Shown here: positions 33,960 to 43,423 of the stretch, one piece after another | Layout of the letters: the number at the start of each line of letters is the position of its first letter | Numbering within the stretch: position 1 is the stretch's first letter | The notes under the pieces: model-generated | What the model was told of the DNA's origin: nothing | Databases searched by the model: none | The model's input: only the letters and a program-made list of their open reading frames with translations | Made by a program: the position numbers and the translations under genes | Source: Anaeromyxobacteraceae bacterium | GTDB taxonomy: Bacteria > Myxococcota > Myxococcia > Myxococcales > Anaeromyxobacteraceae | Direction of reading: 5' to 3' | Assembly (NCBI GenBank): GCA_047602405.1 | Contig: JASGHJ010000001.1 | Coordinates: forward strand, 608,001 to 672,000 | Length of the DNA: 64,000 bases

Positions 33960-35189
33960 ATGAGCTCGATCCTCGACACCATCGCGATGGCGCTCGGCAC
34001 CCTCCGCGCCAACGTCCTCCGCTCCGTCCTCACCCTCCTCGGCATCGTCATCGGCGCGGCCACCGTGGTCGCCATGATGTCGTTCACCGAGGGGCTCAAG
34101 GTGAAGCTCACCACCGACTTCGCCGAGCTCGGGGCGGGCACGTTCCAGGTGCAGAAGTGGCCGGCGATGGAGTTCGGCCACCGCGACTGGCGCAAGATCG
34201 AGAAGCGGCCGGACCTCACCCGCGAGCAAGGCGAGGCGATCCGCGACCTGCCGTACGTGAAGCACGTCTCGATCGAGGAGTACTCGCGCGCGCCCGAGAA
34301 GCTCACCACGCGCGAGCGCTCCACGAAGCAGAGCGTGGGCGTGGGCGGAGCGCTGCCCGACTACGAGCCGGCGAACGGCGTCCAGGTCGCCGACGGCCGC
34401 TTCCTCGTCGACACCGACATCCAGCTCGGGCGGCGGGTCATCTTCATCGCCGCCGACGTCGCCGACGCGCTCTTCCCGGACGGCGGCGCGGTGGGCGAGG
34501 AGGTGCGCCTGCGCGGCGTGCCCTTCGAGGTGGTCGGCGTGGCGGCGCGCAAGGGGGCGGTGCTCGGCCAGTCCCGCGACAACTGGGCGGTCGTCCCGTG
34601 GCCCTCCTTCGAGCGCGTGTGCGGCAAGAACCGCAACAACAACATCGCCATCCAGGCCACCTCGCCCGAGGACATGCCGAAGGCGATCGACGAGGTCATC
34701 GGGAAGCTCCGCCGGCTGCGCGGGCTCGCGCCGCAGGAGGAGAACGACTTCGACTGGTACTCGAACGACACCGCCGCCGAGCTGTTCAACAACCTCGCGG
34801 CGATGGTGGCCGCGGCGACGGGCGGCATCTGCGGCCTCGCGCTCCTCGTCGGCGGCATCGGGATCATGAACATCATGCTCGTGTCGGTGACCGAGCGGAC
34901 CCGCGAGATCGGCGTCCGCAAGGCGCTCGGTGCGCGGCGCGCCAGCATCCTCCGGCAGTTCCTGGTCGAGTCGGTGACCCTCTCGTTCATGGGTGGCGCC
35001 ATCGGCGTGCTGGTGGGCGCCGGGATCGCCCTCGGCGCGAAGGCCATCCTGGACGTCCCGGCGAGCGTCCCGGCGTGGGCAGTGCTACTCTCCCTCGCCT
35101 TGACCGGGGGGGCCGGCCTCCTCTTCGGCATCTACCCTGCCGCGCGGGCGTCGAAGCTCGACCCCGTCGAGGCGATGCGCACCGAGTAG
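33960..35189 (+). CDS. MacB/FtsX-type ABC permease 3 (close paralogue of permease 2)
   Basis: Same motifs; long segments identical to permease 2. Confidence 0.92.
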   Translation: MSSILDTIAMALGTLRANVLRSVLTLLGIVIGAATVVAMMSFTEGLKVKLTTDFAELGAGTFQVQKWPAMEFGHRDWRKIEKRPDLTREQGEAIRDLPYVKHVSIEEYSRAPEKLTTRERSTKQSVGVGGALPDYEPANGVQVADGRFLVDTDIQLGRRVIFIAADVADALFPDGGAVGEEVRLRGVPFEVVGVAARKGAVLGQSRDNWAVVPWPSFERVCGKNRNNNIAIQATSPEDMPKAIDEVIGKLRRLRGLAPQEENDFDWYSNDTAAELFNNLAAMVAAATGGICGLALLVGGIGIMNIMLVSVTERTREIGVRKALGARRASILRQFLVESVTLSFMGGAIGVLVGAGIALGAKAILDVPASVPAWAVLLSLALTGGAGLLFGIYPAARASKLDPVEAMRTE

Positions 35190-35214
35190 GCACGAACAGG
35201 AGAAGTCCGAGAGC

Positions 35215-35907
35215 GTGGAACGCGACAAGGTGATGAAGGAGATCCGCGGCTGGACCGTGACGATCCTGGCGGTCCTCGCGTTCCGGACGTTCCTCTACGA
35301 GGCGGTCTACATCCCGTCGGGCTCGATGATCCCGACGCTGCAGATCGGCGACTACGTCATCGTCGAGAAGTGGGCGTACGGCGCCCGGCTCCCGTTCACC
35401 GAGAGTGCGCAGGCGAGCTGGTCGTCCCCGAAGCGGGGCGACATCGTCGTGCTGCTCGCGCCCCCCGGCAACCCGCGCAACGACGACCTCATCAAGCGCG
35501 TCGTCGGCGTGGAGGGCGACACCGTCGAGATCCGCGACGGCTGGCTCGTCGTGAACGGCGAGCCCGTGCCGCGCGAGACCCTCTCCGGCGAGTGCACCTA
35601 CTGGGACAAGAACGAGGGCGGCCCGTGGCGGCAGGAGGACTGCGCCGACCACCTCGAGACCCTGGGCACCCACCGGTTCCACACCTACTGCAAGGCGAAC
35701 GGCCCCTGCGGCGACGACCTCGTGCCGACGAAGGTGCCGCCCGGCCACGTGTGGCTCGCCGGCGACCACCGCGACCGCTCGGCCGACTCGCGCTACTTCG
35801 GCCCGGTCCCGATCGGCCGCATCAAGGGCCGCGCGGTGATGGCGCTCGCGTCGTGGGGCCCGGACGGCCCGCGGTGGAACCGGCTGTTCCACTCGGTGAC
35901 GCACTAA
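35215..35907 (+). CDS. lepB: signal peptidase I
   Basis: SGSMIPTL (Ser), DLIKRVVG (Lys), GDHRDRSADSRYFG. Confidence 0.92.
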   Translation: MERDKVMKEIRGWTVTILAVLAFRTFLYEAVYIPSGSMIPTLQIGDYVIVEKWAYGARLPFTESAQASWSSPKRGDIVVLLAPPGNPRNDDLIKRVVGVEGDTVEIRDGWLVVNGEPVPRETLSGECTYWDKNEGGPWRQEDCADHLETLGTHRFHTYCKANGPCGDDLVPTKVPPGHVWLAGDHRDRSADSRYFGPVPIGRIKGRAVMALASWGPDGPRWNRLFHSVTH

Positions 35908-37844
35908 GAGCTTTCCCACAATTGCTCAAGCAAGTCGTGGGGCAGACCGGTTCGCCACCGGGCCCGCTCGGACGTGGTCTCCCGTGAGGAAGGCTCATTC
36001 CGGGTTGGGCCCGCGGCCGTGCCGGCGGTTCGCCGAGCCACCGGCGATGAGGCCGGTGTGGACGTCCGCCACGCGGGGCAACTGGCCTCGCGGGCGAAGA
36101 GGTCGTTTGACTCGGACCGGGTGTCTTGCCACCCGAGACACAGGTAGGGTGTGAGGAGGCGCTGGATTTCGGGGCGGGAGCCGTTTGCGGCGGCGTAGTC
36201 GACGCGCGCCGAGTCGGGTTCGCCGGAGAGGTCGAGCACGACGAAGCTCGCGAGCACCGCGGAGACGGCGTCGCGGTCGCCCTCGAGGCGACAGCGCGGG
36301 CAGCGGTGGACCCGGTCGGCGAGGGTCTTCGGCACGCGGGTGCCGCAGGGGCAATGCTGGGAGAGCGCGGTCGTGCGGGTGGGGATCCGGACGACGCCTC
36401 CCTTGGTCTGGGCGAGGCCTGCCACCGCCTTTGCCTCGCGGTCGATGGCCGAGACGAGCAGGCCCGGCGTGAATGCGGCCACGCCGCGGCCCCAGCGGCG
36501 CGCCCACGCGGAGATGTGGCCTTCCTCGGCGAAGATCCGGTAGCCGTGGGTTTGGACGACCTGGGCAGCCACGCGCCTGGCGCGGTCGCGGCGGGCCTGC
36601 ACCCCGGCAGCCGCGCTGGCGACCTCTTCGGCCCGAAGCCGCCGGTGACGGCGCGAGAGCTGGTCGCGCCGGTAGGCCTGGAGCGGCACGCCGTCTGACC
36701 TTGCGATCCTCGGCCCCTGGGGAATGACGTTCACGGGCGAGAGGCCAGCGGCGGCGCGTCGACGGGCGCGCTTCTCTTGCCGCTTCGACAGCCGGTACTG
36801 TTCCTGGTTGGCAGCGCGGCGGGACCGGTCCAGCGCCCGCTGCCTGCGGCGCTCGCGGCGGCGCCGGCCACGGTCGCGCTCCTTCGTGGCAAGGTCGCGC
36901 TCGATCCGCGTGAGGCGCAGGTCGCCTCCCGCCACCTGCGAGGCGATCGTCAGGTTCGATACGTTGACGTCCATCCCCGCGAGGCGGTCAGCCGCTGCGA
37001 CGGCGACCTCCGCCCGGCGCACCCTCGTGGCCGGCGAGACATAGGGCTCCTTCAGCACCATCAGGTGGGCTTCGTAACGCCAACCTCCCCGCGCGTGGGG
37101 CGCCCGGGTGCGGACGAGGTCGACCTTGTGCCAGAGGCTCGGGTCGGCGAGGTGGTAGTCGAGGATGGGTTGGTTGCACGGTGCCGTGGGCAGTCGCACC
37201 GGGAGGACCAGCGAGCCGTCGGCGAGCCCGCTGAACACGAGCATCAAAGGACCTTGGTAAGCCCACCAGTCGACGCGGCCGCCCGGGGCCGAGGGGGCTC
37301 CGAGGCGATGGCCCGCGAGCGACCCGTGCAGCCGGAAGGTCTCCCACTTCCGTGCCGTCGTGTGAGAGCGCGCGCGGCCGGGCAGCCTCCCGAAGTCGAA
37401 CCACCGTCCGACGTGGAGCAGTCCCTGCCGCTTTCCGGTCGCGTCGGGGAACAGGTGCCGCTCCGCCGGCGACCAGACCGAGTCGGCGAGGTGCATCGCG
37501 ATCGCCTTCGTGACGAAGCGCCGGAGGTGAGGTGCCGAGTCCAGAACGGCGTACGCGGTGTGCTCGAGCGCCCCCCGGCTGAGGCCGAGCCGGTCGCGCG
37601 TGCCCGCGACGTCCTGGGCCCGTTCGTGCTTCGCCGCCCAGCAGGCCCGCGTACGGTTCCGGGCCGCCCGCTGCAGCGCCCTCCGCACCCGGTACGCGTC
37701 CGCGAACATCCGCTCGAGCCGCCGACGCTGCTGGGGATCGTGGACGTCGAGCGCGAGCCGCAGGACCGACACGCCGTCCTCGGGCCGGCGTGCCCAGGGC
37801 TCCTGCTTGTTCGGACCGCGGGTCCGCCTGGGTTCGACTTCCAC
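35904..37844 (-). CDS. tnpB: large TnpB/Cas12f-like RNA-guided endonuclease candidate (RuvC + Zn ribbon), 646 aa
   Basis: RuvC-I AGMDVN, Arg-rich helix RRERRRQRALDRSRR, RuvC-II IFAEEG, SQHCPCG...HRCPRC, RuvC-III DRDAVSA. Confidence 0.8.
   Translation of the reverse strand: MEVEPRRTRGPNKQEPWARRPEDGVSVLRLALDVHDPQQRRRLERMFADAYRVRRALQRAARNRTRACWAAKHERAQDVAGTRDRLGLSRGALEHTAYAVLDSAPHLRRFVTKAIAMHLADSVWSPAERHLFPDATGKRQGLLHVGRWFDFGRLPGRARSHTTARKWETFRLHGSLAGHRLGAPSAPGGRVDWWAYQGPLMLVFSGLADGSLVLPVRLPTAPCNQPILDYHLADPSLWHKVDLVRTRAPHARGGWRYEAHLMVLKEPYVSPATRVRRAEVAVAAADRLAGMDVNVSNLTIASQVAGGDLRLTRIERDLATKERDRGRRRRERRRQRALDRSRRAANQEQYRLSKRQEKRARRRAAAGLSPVNVIPQGPRIARSDGVPLQAYRRDQLSRRHRRLRAEEVASAAAGVQARRDRARRVAAQVVQTHGYRIFAEEGHISAWARRWGRGVAAFTPGLLVSAIDREAKAVAGLAQTKGGVVRIPTRTTALSQHCPCGTRVPKTLADRVHRCPRCRLEGDRDAVSAVLASFVVLDLSGEPDSARVDYAAANGSRPEIQRLLTPYLCLGWQDTRSESNDLFAREASCPAWRTSTPASSPVARRTAGTAAGPTRNEPSSRETTSERARWRTGLPHDLLEQLWESS
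35907..36145 (-). ncRNA. predicted omega-RNA-like scaffold overlapping the tnpB 3' end
   Basis: Position at the element end under a poorly structured-looking protein tail; hairpins at 35915-35941, 36039-36058 and 36119-36134; boundaries are inferred. Confidence 0.4.
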
Positions 37845-38694
37845 CTTTTCACTTTAAGCCGAAGCCCTGACAGGCGTTCAGGGCCTCCGAGCAGGCGCCC
37901 TGGACGAAGTGAGCGACGTTCGCGGTTCCAGGGACGTGTCCGTGTCCCTCATACCGACCCACCGACTGCTCACCCTCGCGTCCATGACAGGGCGCGACCT
38001 CGCTCGCCTCCGGCGCGTGCTCCCCGCGTCCAGGTGCCGGGGGCGTCCCTGCTCGAGCTCGCCGCTGCACCGTCTCCTCGTCGCCTGCATCGCGCTGCGC
38101 ACCAACCTCACCCTGCGCGAGCTCGCCGCCGTCGTCGGCCTCTCGAAGTCGACCGTCCATCGCATCGTCGCAGCCTTCACGCCGAGGCTCGCTGGCCTCG
38201 CTCGCCCTCCCGTCCGAAGAGATCGCCGCGAGACCTGGATCGTCGATGGGACCCTCATCCCCACTCGTGATCACGGCCGCGCTGCGAAATCCAAGAACTA
38301 CCGCTGGTCCTGCAACGCCCAGGTGCTCGTGCGCTGGCGAGACCGTCGCGTCGTGGCCACGTCTGCCGGCGGGCCGGGCAACCGAAACGACCCGTTTCAT
38401 TTTCGCGGCTCCGAAATCGAATCGCTTTGCCTCGACCACCGCCGTGTGCTCGCCGACGGAGGATACCGAGGCGTCACCGGCCTTCGCATCCCTGTCTTCA
38501 GGAGCACCAGGATCGTTCGGGATCGCGCCTGGCGCCGCCATCGTCGCCGCCGGGCTCGCGTCGAACACGTCCTCGCTCGCCTCAAAGACTGGCGCGTCCT
38601 GCGCGACCACCGCCGACGCGGCCGCCACCTCGCGGCCACCGTGGCAGCCGTCGCCGTCCTTCACAATCTCAAGCGAAACTTGTGGGACAGCTCT
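35907..38694. mobile_element. IS5-family (ISL2/IS112-like) DDE element carrying a TnpB-like nuclease; 2788 bp
   Basis: Left TIR AGAGCTTTCCCACAA (35907-35921) and right TIR TTGTGGGACAGCTCT (38680-38694) match at 14/15; TA on both sides (35905-35906, 38695-38696); removal restores GCACTAGCCG. Confidence 0.88.
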
Positions 38695-38697
38695 TAG
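37909..38697 (+). CDS. IS5-family transposase (HTH + DDE_Tnp_4-like)
   Basis: TNLTLRELAAVVGLSKSTVHRIV HTH; IVDGTLIP, GNRND, ADGGYRG, RARVEHVLARLKDWRVL; start GTG 37909 or ATG 37984. Confidence 0.88.
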   Translation: MSDVRGSRDVSVSLIPTHRLLTLASMTGRDLARLRRVLPASRCRGRPCSSSPLHRLLVACIALRTNLTLRELAAVVGLSKSTVHRIVAAFTPRLAGLARPPVRRDRRETWIVDGTLIPTRDHGRAAKSKNYRWSCNAQVLVRWRDRRVVATSAGGPGNRNDPFHFRGSEIESLCLDHRRVLADGGYRGVTGLRIPVFRSTRIVRDRAWRRHRRRRARVEHVLARLKDWRVLRDHRRRGRHLAATVAAVAVLHNLKRNLWDSS

Positions 38698-39422
38698 CCG
38701 GCGGTCTCAGCCTCCCCGCCGCGCGCGAGCAGCCGCTCGAGGCTCCCGAGCACGAGCCCCAGTCCGACCTCGAACTCGTGCTCGTAGGACGAGGCGCGGC
38801 CGTTGCTCCCGGGCGGCGTCCGTCCCCTCACGAACGCCCACATCTCCCGGATGTTCGGGAGCGCGCCAGCCGGAAAGTCCGGCTGCGGGCCGCCGGCGGC
38901 CTCGCGCGCCGAGGCGATCCAGCTGACCTCCTGCAGCACGAAGCCGTAGATGAAGCTGTCGAGGAGGATGAGGGCGTCGTACGTCGCCTCGATCGAGAAC
39001 CCGGCCCCGCGCAGGATGCCGATCAGCGCCTCGAAGATGGGCAGCCGGGCGGAGCCGAAGTCCACCCGCGCCTCGATGAGCCCGGGCGCCCAGGGGTGCA
39101 GGAGGAGCACGCGGCGGGCGGCGCGGGCGCGGGTGCGCAGCGCCTCCTGCCAGGCGGAGCCCGCGTCCGGCACGCCGAACTCCCCCCCGACGAGGTCGAC
39201 GATGCCGTTGAGGAGGTCGTCCTTCCCGGCGACGTGGTTGTAGAGGGACATCGCCTCCACGCCGAGGGCGTCGCCGAGCCGGCGCATCGAGAGCGCGCCG
39301 AGCCCCTCCGCGTCGGCGAGCGCGATCGCCGCGCGCAGCACCCGCGCGCGGTCGAGGGGCGCGCGGGCCGGAGCGCGCCGTGGCGTGCGGCGGGCACCGC
39401 TCCGCGGTCCGGTCTGCCGCAT
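38694..39422 (-). CDS. TetR-family regulator with TetR_C domain
   Basis: LSMRRLGDALGVEAMSLYNHVAGKDDLL; start 39422 or 39428. Confidence 0.9.
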   Translation of the reverse strand: MRQTGPRSGARRTPRRAPARAPLDRARVLRAAIALADAEGLGALSMRRLGDALGVEAMSLYNHVAGKDDLLNGIVDLVGGEFGVPDAGSAWQEALRTRARAARRVLLLHPWAPGLIEARVDFGSARLPIFEALIGILRGAGFSIEATYDALILLDSFIYGFVLQEVSWIASAREAAGGPQPDFPAGALPNIREMWAFVRGRTPPGSNGRASSYEHEFEVGLGLVLGSLERLLARGGEAETAG

Positions 39423-39444
39423 CCCCATCCGGCCTCCTGTCACA

Positions 39445-39470
39445 CGTACGACGTAAGCTTACTCTGTAAG
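39445..39470. promoter_or_regulatory. tandem palindromic operators, probably for the adjacent TetR
   Basis: CGTAC-GAC-GTAAG directly followed by the perfect CTTAC-TCT-GTAAG between divergent genes. Confidence 0.7.
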
Positions 39471-39522
39471 TCGTCCGGAGGCAAGCGTGCTCCGGCCCCA
39501 GCTGCCCCGAGGAGGAACCGAC

Positions 39523-40164
39523 ATGACCGCGCTCGTAGCCCTCTTGCTCGCCGGACAGGTCTCGCAGGTCTCGCAGGTCTCGCAGGTCTCGCAGGTCTCG
39601 CAGGTCGAGGTCGCGTCCGCCGCGCCAACCGCCCCGCATCGCTTCTTCGTCTCGAGCCCCTACCTCTCCTTCACGAACTGGATCGGCGAGGACGTCGGCA
39701 TGTACGAGCTCCACGCCGGCTATCGGCTCACCGACCGCGACCGCGTCGGCGTGAAGGCCGTCACCTGGAAGCTCAACAAGCCCCTCGGCATCCCGGCCTG
39801 GGATCCGGCCCTGTTCGAGAAGAGCGAGTACTACCCGGGCCGCGTCCGGGAGTACGGCGTCGGCGCGTTCTACCAGCGCATGCTCTGGAGGGGCCTCTTC
39901 GCCACGGCCGAGCTCGTGCCGCTCCGGAAGGTGTTCCTGGACCGGCACGGGAAGGAGCTCGAGACGGGCTTCCGCCTCTACGCCTCCCTCCACGTCGGCT
40001 ACCACCTGTCGTTCTTCCGCGACCGGCTGTTCATCGAGCCGCAGGTGCACTGCAACGGGTGGCCCGTCGACTCGAAGGGCCCGGAGGGCTTCCGGCGCAT
40101 GGACGCCCGATGGAACAGCTACTTCCTGTTCGAGCCGAACCTGTACCTCGGCGTGAACCTGTGA
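39523..40164 (+). CDS. probable outer-membrane beta-barrel protein
   Basis: GGAGG RBS, signal peptide, alternating aromatic strands, C-terminal PNLYLGVNL. Confidence 0.65.
   Translation: MTALVALLLAGQVSQVSQVSQVSQVSQVEVASAAPTAPHRFFVSSPYLSFTNWIGEDVGMYELHAGYRLTDRDRVGVKAVTWKLNKPLGIPAWDPALFEKSEYYPGRVREYGVGAFYQRMLWRGLFATAELVPLRKVFLDRHGKELETGFRLYASLHVGYHLSFFRDRLFIEPQVHCNGWPVDSKGPEGFRRMDARWNSYFLFEPNLYLGVNL
39556..39606 (+). repeat. 9-bp tandem repeat (CAGGTCTCG) x5 plus 6 bp
   Basis: Perfect copies at 39556, 39565, 39574, 39583, 39592; encodes QVS repeats. Confidence 0.95.
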
Positions 40165-40179
40165 CCCGGGCCAGGCCCG

Positions 40180-40776
40180 CTACGGCGCGGGCTTCGCCTT
40201 CACCACGCTCGCCTTCAGGATCCGCACCGCCGGCGTGAGCGTCTGCCCGTCGGCGGGCGCGGCCTGGATCTTCCGCACCACGTCCATCCCCTTCACGACC
40301 TGCCCGAAGGCCGCGAAGCCCTGGCCGTCGGGGTTGCGCTTCCCGCCGAAGTCGAGCTCCGGCTGCGGTCCGACGCAGACGAAGAAGTCGCTCGTGGCGC
40401 TGTCCGGCTCGGCGCGCGCCATCGAGATCGTGCCGTCGAGGTGCCTCAGGCCCGTCTTCGTCGTGCGCTCGAGGCCGATGGCGGGCCAGCCCTTCGCCTC
40501 CTGCTCCGGCGCGACGCCGCCCTGGATGACCTCGATCTTCACCTTGTTGTTGGGCTGGTTGTCGGGCTTCAGCGTCACCGTCCGGTGGAACCGCCCGCCG
40601 TCGTAGTGCCCGGCCTCGACGTAGCGCAGGAAGTTCTTCGCGGTGACCGGCGCGTGCGCGACGTCGACCGCGAGCTCGAGCTCGCCGAGGCCGGTGGTCA
40701 TGACGACGTGGACGGGCTTCGTCGCGGCGGGGCCCGGGGCGGTGAACAGGATGGCGAGGAGCGAGGCGGCGAGCAT
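40180..40776 (-). CDS. cyclophilin-type peptidyl-prolyl isomerase (exported)
   Basis: APVTAKNFLRY, FHR, VIQGG, ISMAR, SATSDFF, FAAFGQVVKGMDVV. Confidence 0.9.
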   Translation of the reverse strand: MLAASLLAILFTAPGPAATKPVHVVMTTGLGELELAVDVAHAPVTAKNFLRYVEAGHYDGGRFHRTVTLKPDNQPNNKVKIEVIQGGVAPEQEAKGWPAIGLERTTKTGLRHLDGTISMARAEPDSATSDFFVCVGPQPELDFGGKRNPDGQGFAAFGQVVKGMDVVRKIQAAPADGQTLTPAVRILKASVVKAKPAP

Positions 40777-40785
40777 GGGAGGAGT

Positions 40786-41565
40786 CTACCGCGGCCTGGG
40801 GTGCAGGACGGCGTGTACGGCCTGGCCGGCGGTGTGGACCCCCGGGGCGACCTGCTCGATGACCAGCGCAGCCGAGACCGTCATCACGAGCACGAGGAGG
40901 GCCGGGCCCCAGGTCGCCCTCGCCGCGGCGCTCCAGGGCTCCTGCACGAGGGGCCTCCCGCGGATGCTCCGGTAGACGAGCCCGCCGAAGGTCGCGTCCA
41001 GCGCCACCTCAGCGAGCAGGCCCGGAGCCGTCCAGACCAACCAGACCGAGACGATGAGCGCCGTGGCGGTCAGGGCCGCGAGCACCGTCACCACGATCGC
41101 GAAGGCGATCCCCTCGAGGTCGAGATCGAGGTCCGGCACGGGCAGGTCGAAGCCGGAGGACGGAGCCTCCACCTCGACGAGGCCCAGGTCCACGGGACCG
41201 CCCGGTCCGCGCGCACCGCGGAGCGCATGGTTGGCCAGGTCCCACGCGCCGCCGGGATCTTCCGCGACGGCGTCCAGGGTCCGGCCGGCCGCCTCCCCGA
41301 GGAAGCGAGCATCCGGTCCGATCCCGGCCGCGACGAGCAACCAGACGCGCAAGAGCACGAGGAACGTGGCGTAGGCGGCGAGGACCCCGAGCAGCCACCG
41401 GAGCGCCATCCGATCCACGCCGTGATGCAAGAGGAACACCGAGGTCAGGAAGCCCACGGCCGCGGTGAGGGTGATCATCCCGAGCATCGCGAGCCGTGGG
41501 TGTCCGCGCTCCACCCACCGCCGCATCTTCGCGTGCTCCCGGGTCCGATCGAAGCGAAGCGCCAT
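40786..41565 (-). CDS. hypothetical multi-TM membrane protein
   Basis: Several hydrophobic helices with an acidic loop (DLPVPDLDLDLEG); start uncertain. Confidence 0.6.
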   Translation of the reverse strand: MALRFDRTREHAKMRRWVERGHPRLAMLGMITLTAAVGFLTSVFLLHHGVDRMALRWLLGVLAAYATFLVLLRVWLLVAAGIGPDARFLGEAAGRTLDAVAEDPGGAWDLANHALRGARGPGGPVDLGLVEVEAPSSGFDLPVPDLDLDLEGIAFAIVVTVLAALTATALIVSVWLVWTAPGLLAEVALDATFGGLVYRSIRGRPLVQEPWSAAARATWGPALLVLVMTVSAALVIEQVAPGVHTAGQAVHAVLHPRPR

Positions 41566-41764
41566 CGGCCACCCCCGCGAACCAGCGGACCAGATCGCGG
41601 CGCGGGACGCGAGCGAAACCGGACGCGACCGAAGGGGTCGCGCGTCACTGTCAGCCAACCTCAGTGTGAGGATCGAATTCTCGAAGGTAAGGGGTCGAGG
41701 GCCTCCAGGTGAAGCTCGTCCTCACGGACGGCAGCGAGCGCACGGTCGACCTCGCGCCGCTCAC

Positions 41765-43423
41765 CTACCCCTCCGCCTCCTCGGCGGCGTCCGTCCCGCC
41801 CTCGCGCTCGCCCTGCGCGAGGAAGATCCGGCGCACGGTCTCGATGGTGTCGGCCTGCTCCACCGGCTTGTCCTCGCGGTAGCGCTTCACGCGCGCGAAG
41901 CGGAGCGCGAGGCCGCCGGGGTAGCGGGTCGAGGCCTGCAGGCCGTCGAAGGCGATCTCGACGACGAGCTCCGGGCGGACGTGCACGACCCAGCCGTCGG
42001 ACTCGCCGAGCGCCATCGAGCGCAGCTTCTCGGTCTGCCAGCGCAGCATCGCGTCGGTCATGCCCTTGAAGGTCTTTCCGAGCATGACGAAGCCGCCGTG
42101 CTCGGGGTCGCGGGCGCCGAGGTGCAGGTTGGAGAGCCAGGCGCTCCGGCGGCCGGAGCCCTTCTCGACCGCGAGCACGACGAGGTCGAGCGTGTGGGCG
42201 CGCTTCACCTTGCGCCAGGCGGCGCCGCGGCGGCCCGCCTCGTAGGGCGCCTCCAGCGACTTCGCGACGATCCCCTCGTGGCCGCGGCCGAGCGCGCCGT
42301 CGAGGAACTCGGTCGCGTCGTCGAGGTCGTCGGTCACGAGCCGGGGCACGCGCATCGTGGCGGGGACCTCGGCCGCGAGCCGCTCGGCGCGGTCGCGCGC
42401 GGTGCGGCCCACGAGGTCCTCGCCGCCGGCGTGGAGGAGGTCGAAGAAGAGGGCGGTGAGGAGCGGACCGCCCCTCGTCTCCGCCCGTTCATCCCGAGCG
42501 TTGGCCCCGCGAAGCGGGTCCGGAGTCGAGGGACGCTCGGGGTGAACGGCTCCAGAGACGTCGCGCCCCCGTCGCCCGAACCGGCTCATCGTGACCTGGA
42601 AGGGCTCGGGCGTGCCGTCGGGCCGGAGCGCGATGGCCTCGCCGTCGAGCACGATCGAGCCGACCGGGAGCCTCTTCACCGCGGCGACGATCTCCGGCAC
42701 CGCGGGCGTCACGTCGCGCAGCGTGCGGGAGAACACGCGTACCTCGTCGCCGTCCCGGTGCACCTGGACCCGGGCGCCGTCGAGCTTCCACTCCAGCGCC
42801 GCCTCGCCGAGCTCGTCGAGCGCCTCGGCGACGTCGGCGGCGGGCGAGGCGAGCATCGGCGAGACCGGCTCGAGGAGGCGCAGCCGGAAGCGCGCGAGGC
42901 CCGCCAGGCTCTCCCCGAGCGCCGCCTCGGCGACCTCGGCGAGCGCGCCGCCCATCATCGCGGCGCGCCGGACCTCGTGGGCGGGGACCTCCGCGGCCTT
43001 CGCGACCGCCTCGACGAGCACGCCCTCGAGGGCGCCCTGGCGGAGCTCGCCGAGCAACAGCCCGGTGAGGAACGCGCGCTCCTCCGCGGTCGCCCGGGAG
43101 AGGAGACCCTCCAGCGTCCGGCGCCGCTCGCCGGCGGAGCCGCCGCCGCGCGCCGCGGCGATCCGCTCGAGCGCGGCCTGCACGTCGGCGAGCTCGAGGG
43201 TGGGCTCCGCGGCCGCGGGGACGGCCTCGAGCGCCGCGCGGACCGTGGCGTGGCCGAGGCCGATCCGGCCCTGCACGAGCTCGCCCGCGAGCCACGCGGC
43301 GCCGAGGCGGCGCTCGCCCGGGCCGAGCGCGCGCAGCACCGCCGCGAGCCGCGAGACCTTCTCGAGGCGCGCGGAGGTACGGGCGACCTCGGCGGAGGTC
43401 CGGGCGAGCTCCTGTAACCTCAC
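41765..43423 (-). CDS. ATP-dependent DNA ligase (LigB-like)
   Basis: PMLA, EWKLDGARVQ, LDGE, FDLL, EGIVAK, WRKVK, LRFAR; GTGA coupling to the upstream gene. Confidence 0.92.
   Translation of the reverse strand: MRLQELARTSAEVARTSARLEKVSRLAAVLRALGPGERRLGAAWLAGELVQGRIGLGHATVRAALEAVPAAAEPTLELADVQAALERIAAARGGGSAGERRRTLEGLLSRATAEERAFLTGLLLGELRQGALEGVLVEAVAKAAEVPAHEVRRAAMMGGALAEVAEAALGESLAGLARFRLRLLEPVSPMLASPAADVAEALDELGEAALEWKLDGARVQVHRDGDEVRVFSRTLRDVTPAVPEIVAAVKRLPVGSIVLDGEAIALRPDGTPEPFQVTMSRFGRRGRDVSGAVHPERPSTPDPLRGANARDERAETRGGPLLTALFFDLLHAGGEDLVGRTARDRAERLAAEVPATMRVPRLVTDDLDDATEFLDGALGRGHEGIVAKSLEAPYEAGRRGAAWRKVKRAHTLDLVVLAVEKGSGRRSAWLSNLHLGARDPEHGGFVMLGKTFKGMTDAMLRWQTEKLRSMALGESDGWVVHVRPELVVEIAFDGLQASTRYPGGLALRFARVKRYREDKPVEQADTIETVRRIFLAQGEREGGTDAAEEAEG
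42485..42549. repeat. REP-like palindromic element, copy 1 (inside the ligase CDS)
   Basis: CCGTTCATCCCGAGCGT ... ACGCTCGGGGTGAACGG (16/17 inverted repeat) with an internal CCGGAGTCGAGGGAC block. Confidence 0.75.

Follow-up and report, generated by a model that had tools for sequence, protein, structure and literature searches.

How TnpB proteins can operate together with cut-and-paste transposases is a question that has been posed in print (PMC10711439; PMC13565253, in its section 6.2), and a mobile element of an Anaeromyxobacteraceae bacterium (assembly GCA_047602405.1) raises it in concrete form: a tnpB gene lies there between inverted repeats beside a DDE transposase gene, and a reading made from the sequence alone had predicted a guide RNA over the end of the gene. 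The window, by which we mean the whole stretch of DNA that was analysed, comprises 64,000 nucleotides of contig JASGHJ010000001.1 (positions 608,001 to 672,000 of the forward strand), and all coordinates below are counted from its first letter (Table 1). Does the end of this tnpB specify an omega-RNA, the guide RNA of a TnpB, and if so, where would the guide begin and what would the complex recognize? We find that a structure of about 230 nt is conserved and covaries in Myxococcota and Actinomycetota, far beyond chance. This structure is, with good probability, the omega-RNA of the element's own TnpB, predicted to be cut from the tnpB mRNA, closed by a pseudoknot between the loop of its first hairpin (H1) and the element tip, and using about 16-20 bases of flanking DNA as its guide.

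RNA structure across the end of tnpB

The sequence-only reading had marked three hairpins in the last 240 bp of tnpB, and all three are found where it placed them (CCCAC..TTGC-TCAA-GCAA..GTGGG at 35915-35941, CACCGGC-N6-GCCGGTG at 36039-36058 and, on the minus strand, GGGTG-GCAAGA-CACCC at 36134-36119), although of the middle one only the CACC/GGUG base is conserved, the length of its upper stem varying. Its caution that hairpins alone are weak evidence at such a GC content was justified: the fold of the window sequence has a z-score of -2.09, and 8 of 200 shuffled sequences folded as well. A search of Rfam returned two matches in 35000-39500, both far below the gathering threshold.

The evidence that carries the structure is comparative. 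RNAalifold, given 30 sequences from genomes, returned 47 base pairs, 25 of them with two-sided changes; the 57-pair structure used hereafter is this consensus with helices P3 and P11, a longer P4 and the pseudoknot added by eye. Imposed on the window and 37 metagenome sequences, it leaves 94.4% of the cells paired, with two-sided change in 30 of the 57 pairs, and on the 30 genome sequences 94.0%, with 27 of the 57 pairs compensatory. None of 500 shuffles reached the observed score in either alignment, and sliding the partners lowered the pairing to 32-42%. When 67 sequences were scanned blindly for mutual information, the top seven column pairs were all predicted pairs. P3 slips register and is paired in just 69-76% of cells.

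Among more distant relatives, an alignment of 26 rows (23 actinobacterial and three other) shows 99.5% pairing in H1, P2 and the pseudoknot. P2 is near-invariant in Myxococcota and has both strands replaced in four distant plasmid loci (Streptomyces, Euzebya and two of mycobacteria); in the mycobacterial plasmid loci H1, too, is entirely rebuilt, around the same GCAAGA loop. On the tnpB strand G-U cells outnumber A-C cells by 84 to 32. Covariation among homologues was the check that the sequence-only reading had itself named, and its prediction passes clearly, on the tnpB strand and with a sharp edge at the element end. A covariance model, covering the 110-nt 5' domain only, matches the six tnpB copies of the genome and nothing else in it; it finds matches in four of 37 genomes across the genus, and of 32 sources chosen as a test it recovers 24 at E ≤ 0.01 and 29 at E ≤ 0.06.

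Element tip, predicted guide and predicted target motif

A profile ending before the element tip matched 56 of the 71 metagenome loci, and of the 54 ends that could be read 50 continue with CTTAG and then free sequence, conservation ending sharply past CT/TAG (the slash marks the edge of the element). The loop bases AAGA of H1 (36127-36124) are complementary to UCUU (35909-35906), the last U of which is the T of the target duplication. Across 90 sequences the pair 36124-35909 is A-U in 63, G-C in 21, G-U in two and broken (A.C) in four, and on a quick tree the G-C form is seen in at least three lineages (L006, L009 and a Micromonosporaceae clade). Pseudoknot pairing amounts to 95-100%, with one of the four pairs covarying; judged from these alignments, the pairing of tip and loop is likely a pseudoknot of the TnpB type, short of proof because the other three pairs are near-invariant. 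A different partner for the tip, UGAG (35997-35994) with CUUA, was rejected: no covariation is seen for it, and UGAG is replaced by CGAG or CCAG in several actinobacterial rows. A possible extra pair between the loop C and the target G is broken by one Streptomyces row.

The two ends of the element are asymmetric, as would be expected if the tnpB-side (right) end has an extra job, in the RNA, that the transposase-side (left) end lacks. The tip reads AG in 73 of 75 tnpB-side ends and in 43 of 57 transposase-side ends (p 2e-4, counting kin that are not independent), its third base is A in 69 of 75 as against 30 of 57, and none of the 18 actinobacterial left ends located, among 31 loci examined, starts with A. 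The sole right end of the 75 that reads CC/TAG, and thus presents CTA before the flank, where it would set a TAM ahead of its own guide, belongs to a remnant without H1. The proposal that the inverted repeat serves both the transposase and the RNA, as the end of the scaffold, is borne out by the terminal stem and the predicted pseudoknot. At 35913 the tnpB-side repeat of the window carries a private G-to-T change (the other copies read GTCCC), which costs the terminal stem one pair.

The target is CTAG: all 57 left ends have C before the TA and 74 of 75 right ends have G after it, seven left ends and one right end out of register having been left out of these counts. The duplication is TA, because empty orthologous sites carry a single TA; such sites were found for 2 of 33 junctions tested, within the Anaeromyxobacteraceae genome under study. 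An exact empty allele of the window's own insertion site was not found, the nearest relative reading TGA there. The genome holds 1073 CTAG sites, where 14189 would be expected from its base content.

The sequence-only reading had let the guide begin with UA and continue into the flank, antisense to the 3' end of lepB. Its predicted origin in the flank agrees with the edge at which conservation stops, and the UA is most likely scaffold and not guide, because its U pairs in the predicted pseudoknot and because IS607 TnpB and Fanzors offer a precedent: as described by Yoon et al. (2023, PMC10711439), the scaffold of IS607 TnpB includes a fixed flanking base and keeps the pseudoknot, and in Fanzors the duplication is predicted to be part of the scaffold. 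On our analysis the fixed G may also be scaffold, so the guide would start at 35904 or 35903. The target-adjacent motif (TAM) would probably come from the other flank, as (S)SCTA(G), S being G or C. CTA is fixed in the left flank, and in 23 of 40 complete elements the two bases before CTA contain more G/C at the left end than at the right, in four less and in 13 as much (p 3e-4); when all genomic CTAG sites serve as the reference, enrichment is confined to position -3 (p 0.007). A search of the genome for sites matching 16 guide bases with up to two mismatches behind CTA found no other.

We suggest that the tnpB mRNA would run through the element end into the flank and that TnpB would trim the 5' end of the RNA near 36135, much as IS200/IS605 TnpB is described to process its own guide RNA from mRNA, with 5' trimming (PMC10278001). 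On an allele without the element, TAM and target would be adjacent and the complex would cut, and repair from the filled copy would keep or spread the element; the filled right end, which reads TCTTA and not SSCTA, would be spared. Cutting of empty sites only is predicted to rest on the difference of C versus T three bases before the guide. A TA-TA footprint would escape cutting, and the likely substrates would be precise excisions or incoming naive alleles.

The protein, its tail and competing explanations

By modelling and alignment the protein is a divergent TnpB with the Cas12f/TnpB fold and an intact D-E-D triad, and it is predicted to be active. AlphaFold gives a mean predicted local distance difference test score (pLDDT) of 81.8, with residues from about 20 to 570 confident and residues 571-646 below 50, and the best Foldseek matches of the model are AsCas12f, Cas12m2, ISFba1 TnpB, TranC and ISDra2 TnpB, at 11-16% identity. 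Among the loci covering them, the catalytic residues are kept in 135 of 136 (D292), 128 of 128 (E440) and 119 of 119 (D525), and the four zinc cysteines are kept in at least 90% of 106 aligned proteins. Domain models gave the 646-residue protein only a weak zinc-finger match, the curated TnpB model scoring 27.5 bits against a cut-off of 100. A second invariant glutamate, E470, lies 55 residues before RuvC-III, besides the canonical E440.

The codon of D525, in RuvC-III, lies at 36272-36270 and is followed by 121 codons to the TAG at 35906-35904, in accord with the approximately 120 counted earlier; the first 45 belong to the folded protein and the last 76 overlap the RNA. The third-codon excess that marks selection on the protein stops at residues 567-570, exactly at the start of H1 and in agreement with the drop in pLDDT, and a folded domain in the tail is ruled out by the low pLDDT and the missing third-codon signature. 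The frame itself is retained. No stop interrupts it ahead of the target-supplied TAG in 55 of the 66 unique sequences of one group and in 17 of the 29 of another, and the RNA part has a length divisible by three in 72 of 89 sequences, or for 18 of the 30 different lengths that occur (p 0.002). Among those 72, six have a stop in the tnpB frame and between 20 and 72 have one in each of the other five frames, and shuffled RNA parts keep the frame open 18% of the time. The tail is nevertheless disordered and without a codon signature, and it seems from these comparisons that translation through the scaffold is selected and the peptide is not. Our guesses are that the open frame provides a tether for loading in cis or that it avoids a stop-less mRNA after 3' trimming; with a tether, the ribosome would unfold the scaffold and bring a TnpB that has just folded onto its own RNA in cis. 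A bolder proposal, possible but doubtful in our judgement, is that this is a TnpB lineage fully adapted to a cut-and-paste element and a bacterial counterpart of the Fanzors, in which CTAG would serve as TAM, as last pseudoknot base and as both stops, the tail as an in-frame tether, and one base (C versus T) as the switch between self and non-self.

The RNA might also guide a complex that binds and does not cut, either as a roadblock in the manner of Cas12m or by steering the transposase to the vacated CTAG. Among the top fold matches are Cas12m structures, the protein exceeds the tested TnpBs by about 150 aa, and cut-and-paste transposition already leaves a break, to which a nuclease would add little (a point made in PMC13565253); we nonetheless consider this unlikely, with all three catalytic residues and the zinc finger kept across relatives diverged by 50% and with many transposase-less copies retaining tnpB and RNA, the pattern of elements maintained by a nuclease. 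Quite improbable, in our estimate, is a cis-acting element of the mRNA, a stabilizer or a control of tnpB translation or termination, in place of a guide scaffold. It would account for a frame held open across the whole structure, for which an RNA that is cut out has no obvious need, but the tip pairs with a distant loop at exactly the place of the TnpB pseudoknot, conservation stops at the target edge, and the RNA region contains no terminator-like site (a scan for sigma-70 promoters and terminators gave no promoter and one terminator-like site, at chance level and distant from that region). We give hardly any credence to the idea that the hairpins serve the transposase as signals in single-stranded DNA, or that they simply follow from high GC content and protein conservation: the z-score of the single sequence is only -2.09 and DNA hairpins are used at IS200/IS605 ends, yet the compensatory changes and the excess of G-U on one strand already contradict it, the structure occurs at one element end only and shows no third-codon signature, and the transposase, being of DDE type, goes with inverted repeats.

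Several points weigh against the omega-RNA that we prefer. The role assigned to the RNA is a prediction from sequence and structure throughout, and the protein is distant from the tested TnpBs (27.5 bits where the cut-off is 100; 11-16% structural identity). The 5'-domain model missed both mycobacterial loci (its misses are L069, L169 and L170, a remnant included), and one alignment (A3) had been seen before P3, P11 and the pseudoknot were added and is fully independent only for the RNAalifold helices. Two lineages (L108/L110 and L112/L114) break the fourth pseudoknot pair, L056 and L033 each break other pairs of it, and the three pairs that never covary are constrained by transposase and target too. 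Beyond CTA the TAM is soft (measured against the CTAG sites of the genome, the bias at -2, 43 of 56, falls short of significance, p 0.09), and the asymmetry between left and right flanks could be a preference of the transposase. Cut-and-paste excision, moreover, is not expected to be scarless (PMC13565253, section 6.2), and the source of empty sites is in doubt because excision need not restore a clean site.

The element, its copies and related systems

As a mobile element the locus is of IS5 type, with a DDE transposase, an N-terminal helix-turn-helix, 15-bp inverted repeats and TA duplicated within CTAG. The transposase matches Pfam DDE_Tnp_1 and DDE_Tnp_4 above the cut-off and HTH_Tnp_4 below it, its best NCBIfam match is transpos_IS5_4 (47.6 bits, cut-off 140), and its catalytic residues, read from the sequence, are D113, D183 and E219. 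Four other identities were ruled out: IS200/IS605, as there is no Y1 HUH transposase and inverted repeats and a duplication are present; IS607, with neither serine recombinase nor GG ends and an IS607_TnpB score of 26.6 against a cut-off of 350; IStron, with no group I intron match in Rfam over 35000-39500 at E ≤ 1; and a CRISPR type V (Cas12f/m) locus, with no regularly spaced repeat family in 34000-42000.

Table 1. Features of the element, its predicted RNA and the adjoining host genes (window coordinates)
Feature	Position	Strand	Remarks
Host signal peptidase gene lepB (predicted guide donor)	35215..35907	+	protein-family match
Predicted guide, from 35904 or 35903 outward	35886..35904	-	antisense to lepB 3' end; length inferred
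tnpB, 646 aa	35904..37844	-	RuvC D292, E440, D525; zinc finger of C4 type; fold ends near aa 570
Predicted omega-RNA scaffold, about 230 nt	35905..36135	-	5' end inferred from first conserved hairpin
Target duplication TA, tnpB side	35905..35906		target CTAG; gives tnpB stop TAG (minus strand) and lepB stop TAA
Predicted pseudoknot, 3' strand	35906..35909	-	last three bases of the element and duplication T
IS5-type element, transposase and tnpB divergent	35907..38694		2788 bp; from repeats and own-genome copies
Inverted repeat, tnpB side	35907..35921	+	15 bp, one mismatch at 35913; also 3' end of predicted RNA scaffold
Disordered 76-codon tnpB tail over the RNA	35907..36134	-	frame conserved, amino acids not
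Terminal stem-loop P11	35912..35944	-	inverted repeat forms its 3' strand; 81-89% paired; apart from P3 the weakest helix
Long 3' arm, helices P6-P10	35946..36026	-	strongest covariation
5' multibranch domain	36032..36117	-	P2 (36117-36110 with 36038-36032) around P4 (36092-36072) and P5 (36058-36039)
Hairpin H1, conserved loop GCAAGR	36119..36134	-	loop 36127-36124 is 5' strand of predicted pseudoknot
IS5-type transposase, 262 aa	37909..38697	+	HTH_Tnp_4 and DDE_Tnp_4/DDE_Tnp_1
Inverted repeat, transposase side	38680..38694	-	15 bp
Host TetR-family gene, convergent on lepB	38694..39443	-	protein-family match
Target duplication TA, transposase side	38695..38696		gives transposase stop TAG and tetR-like gene stop TAA
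Predicted TAM source GGCTA, other flank	38695..38699	-	family consensus SSCTA

The insertion point is the CTAG in which the convergent lepB and tetR-like genes shared their stop (35904-35907, 38694-38697), and both host genes are intact; after insertion they end in TAA and the two element genes in TAG. In 26 of 41 and 45 of 60 flanks an open frame stops at the duplication, as compared with 50% for all CTAG sides of the genome, which is only suggestive of a preference for host stop codons, other frames passing the same test 39% of the time. Of 56 left ends examined, 44 have the transposase frame closed by a stop that the target supplies. At 37845-37875 (minus strand) and at 41 other loci, TGTCA is followed by 11 nt, TAnnnT, 6-9 nt and the tnpB start codon; this resembles a promoter for leaderless tnpB transcripts whose spacer is unusually short and which overlaps the divergent transposase start, the search pattern having been derived from the alignment with no control run. 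Outside the element, tandem 9-bp repeats at 39547-39606 code for (SQV)n, which follows the signal region in a 225-aa open reading frame.

The genome of the window contains six tnpB-bearing copies and one short remnant, with flanks that are all different. Among 7985 candidate proteins scored, 772 are related, and the relatives comprise 64 genome loci and 71 metagenome loci, the nearest in Anaeromyxobacter, followed by other Myxococcota, Actinomycetota and scattered phyla, with five plasmid records. Occurrence within the phylum is patchy (3 of 301 genomes), and 26 pattern matches on viral contigs included no relative. Transposase-less copies of about 2.2 kb (G000:C1:600k, C1:1536k, C2:2144k; L029-L063) retain tnpB, the RNA and both ends; in Dactylosporangium such copies are numerous, and their left and right ends have diverged from one another. 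One copy (L067, G000:C2:798301-799982) has a 1.7-kb insertion between its two genes with a 447-codon transposase-like frame, an insert which, going by its motifs, we take to be ISAs1-like. At another locus (L173, G001:C13) the RNA match stands beside only the last 87 tnpB codons and transposase fragments, and from its sequence this is a deleted derivative that keeps the whole RNA.

TnpBs linked to DDE transposases within inverted repeats have been assigned to branches DDE-1 to DDE-6 (Altae-Tran et al., 2023, PMC10691335), and a 2026 review names ISL2, IS630 and IS1031 as their partners (PMC13565253). The present family very probably falls in one of these branches, with which, as the text of the former describes them, it has in common a TnpB inside inverted repeats with a DDE transposase, a tnpB 3' end less than 250 bp from the element end, and solo tnpB copies mobilized in trans. 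That text gives no RNA structure, pseudoknot, guide start or TAM for the DDE branches, though its figures and tables may hold end alignments; in the literature searched, which mostly left subscription journals uncovered, there was no account of RNA structure, guide start or TAM for DDE-linked TnpB elements.

With the IS200/IS605 TnpBs (ISDra2, ISFba1, Ama) the family shares a scaffold over the gene end, a flank-derived guide, a related fold and, as predicted here, a pseudoknot of an apical loop with the last scaffold bases; it differs in its DDE and not Y1 transposase, its inverted repeats and duplication, a longer scaffold, of about 230 nt, that would reach beyond the element end, and a larger protein (570 folded aa). 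IS607 TnpB (ISXfa1) and Fanzor2* are described with fixed flank bases in the scaffold, the repeats and duplication of Fanzor2* being predicted scaffold parts, but here there is no serine recombinase and the host is bacterial. Fanzor1, of eukaryotic DDE transposons, likewise has inverted repeat and duplication inside the scaffold and the duplication as part of the TAM, whereas it has lost the pseudoknot and rearranged RuvC-II, where the present family has the canonical E440 and a likely pseudoknot. Cas12f and Cas12m are the closest solved folds, but 34000-42000 holds no CRISPR array, and the element is mobile and multi-copy with its own transposase.

In cut-and-paste elements the duplication and the inverted repeats place limits on TAM and scaffold alike. 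The family offers a full set of predictions for such a system, namely scaffold limits, a pseudoknot with natural compensatory variants, a guide start within one base and a TAM, and a programmable nuclease, far removed from the tested ones and using a GC-rich CTA(G) TAM, may come out of it. The conservation of the frame across the RNA suggests that translation and RNA loading are coupled.

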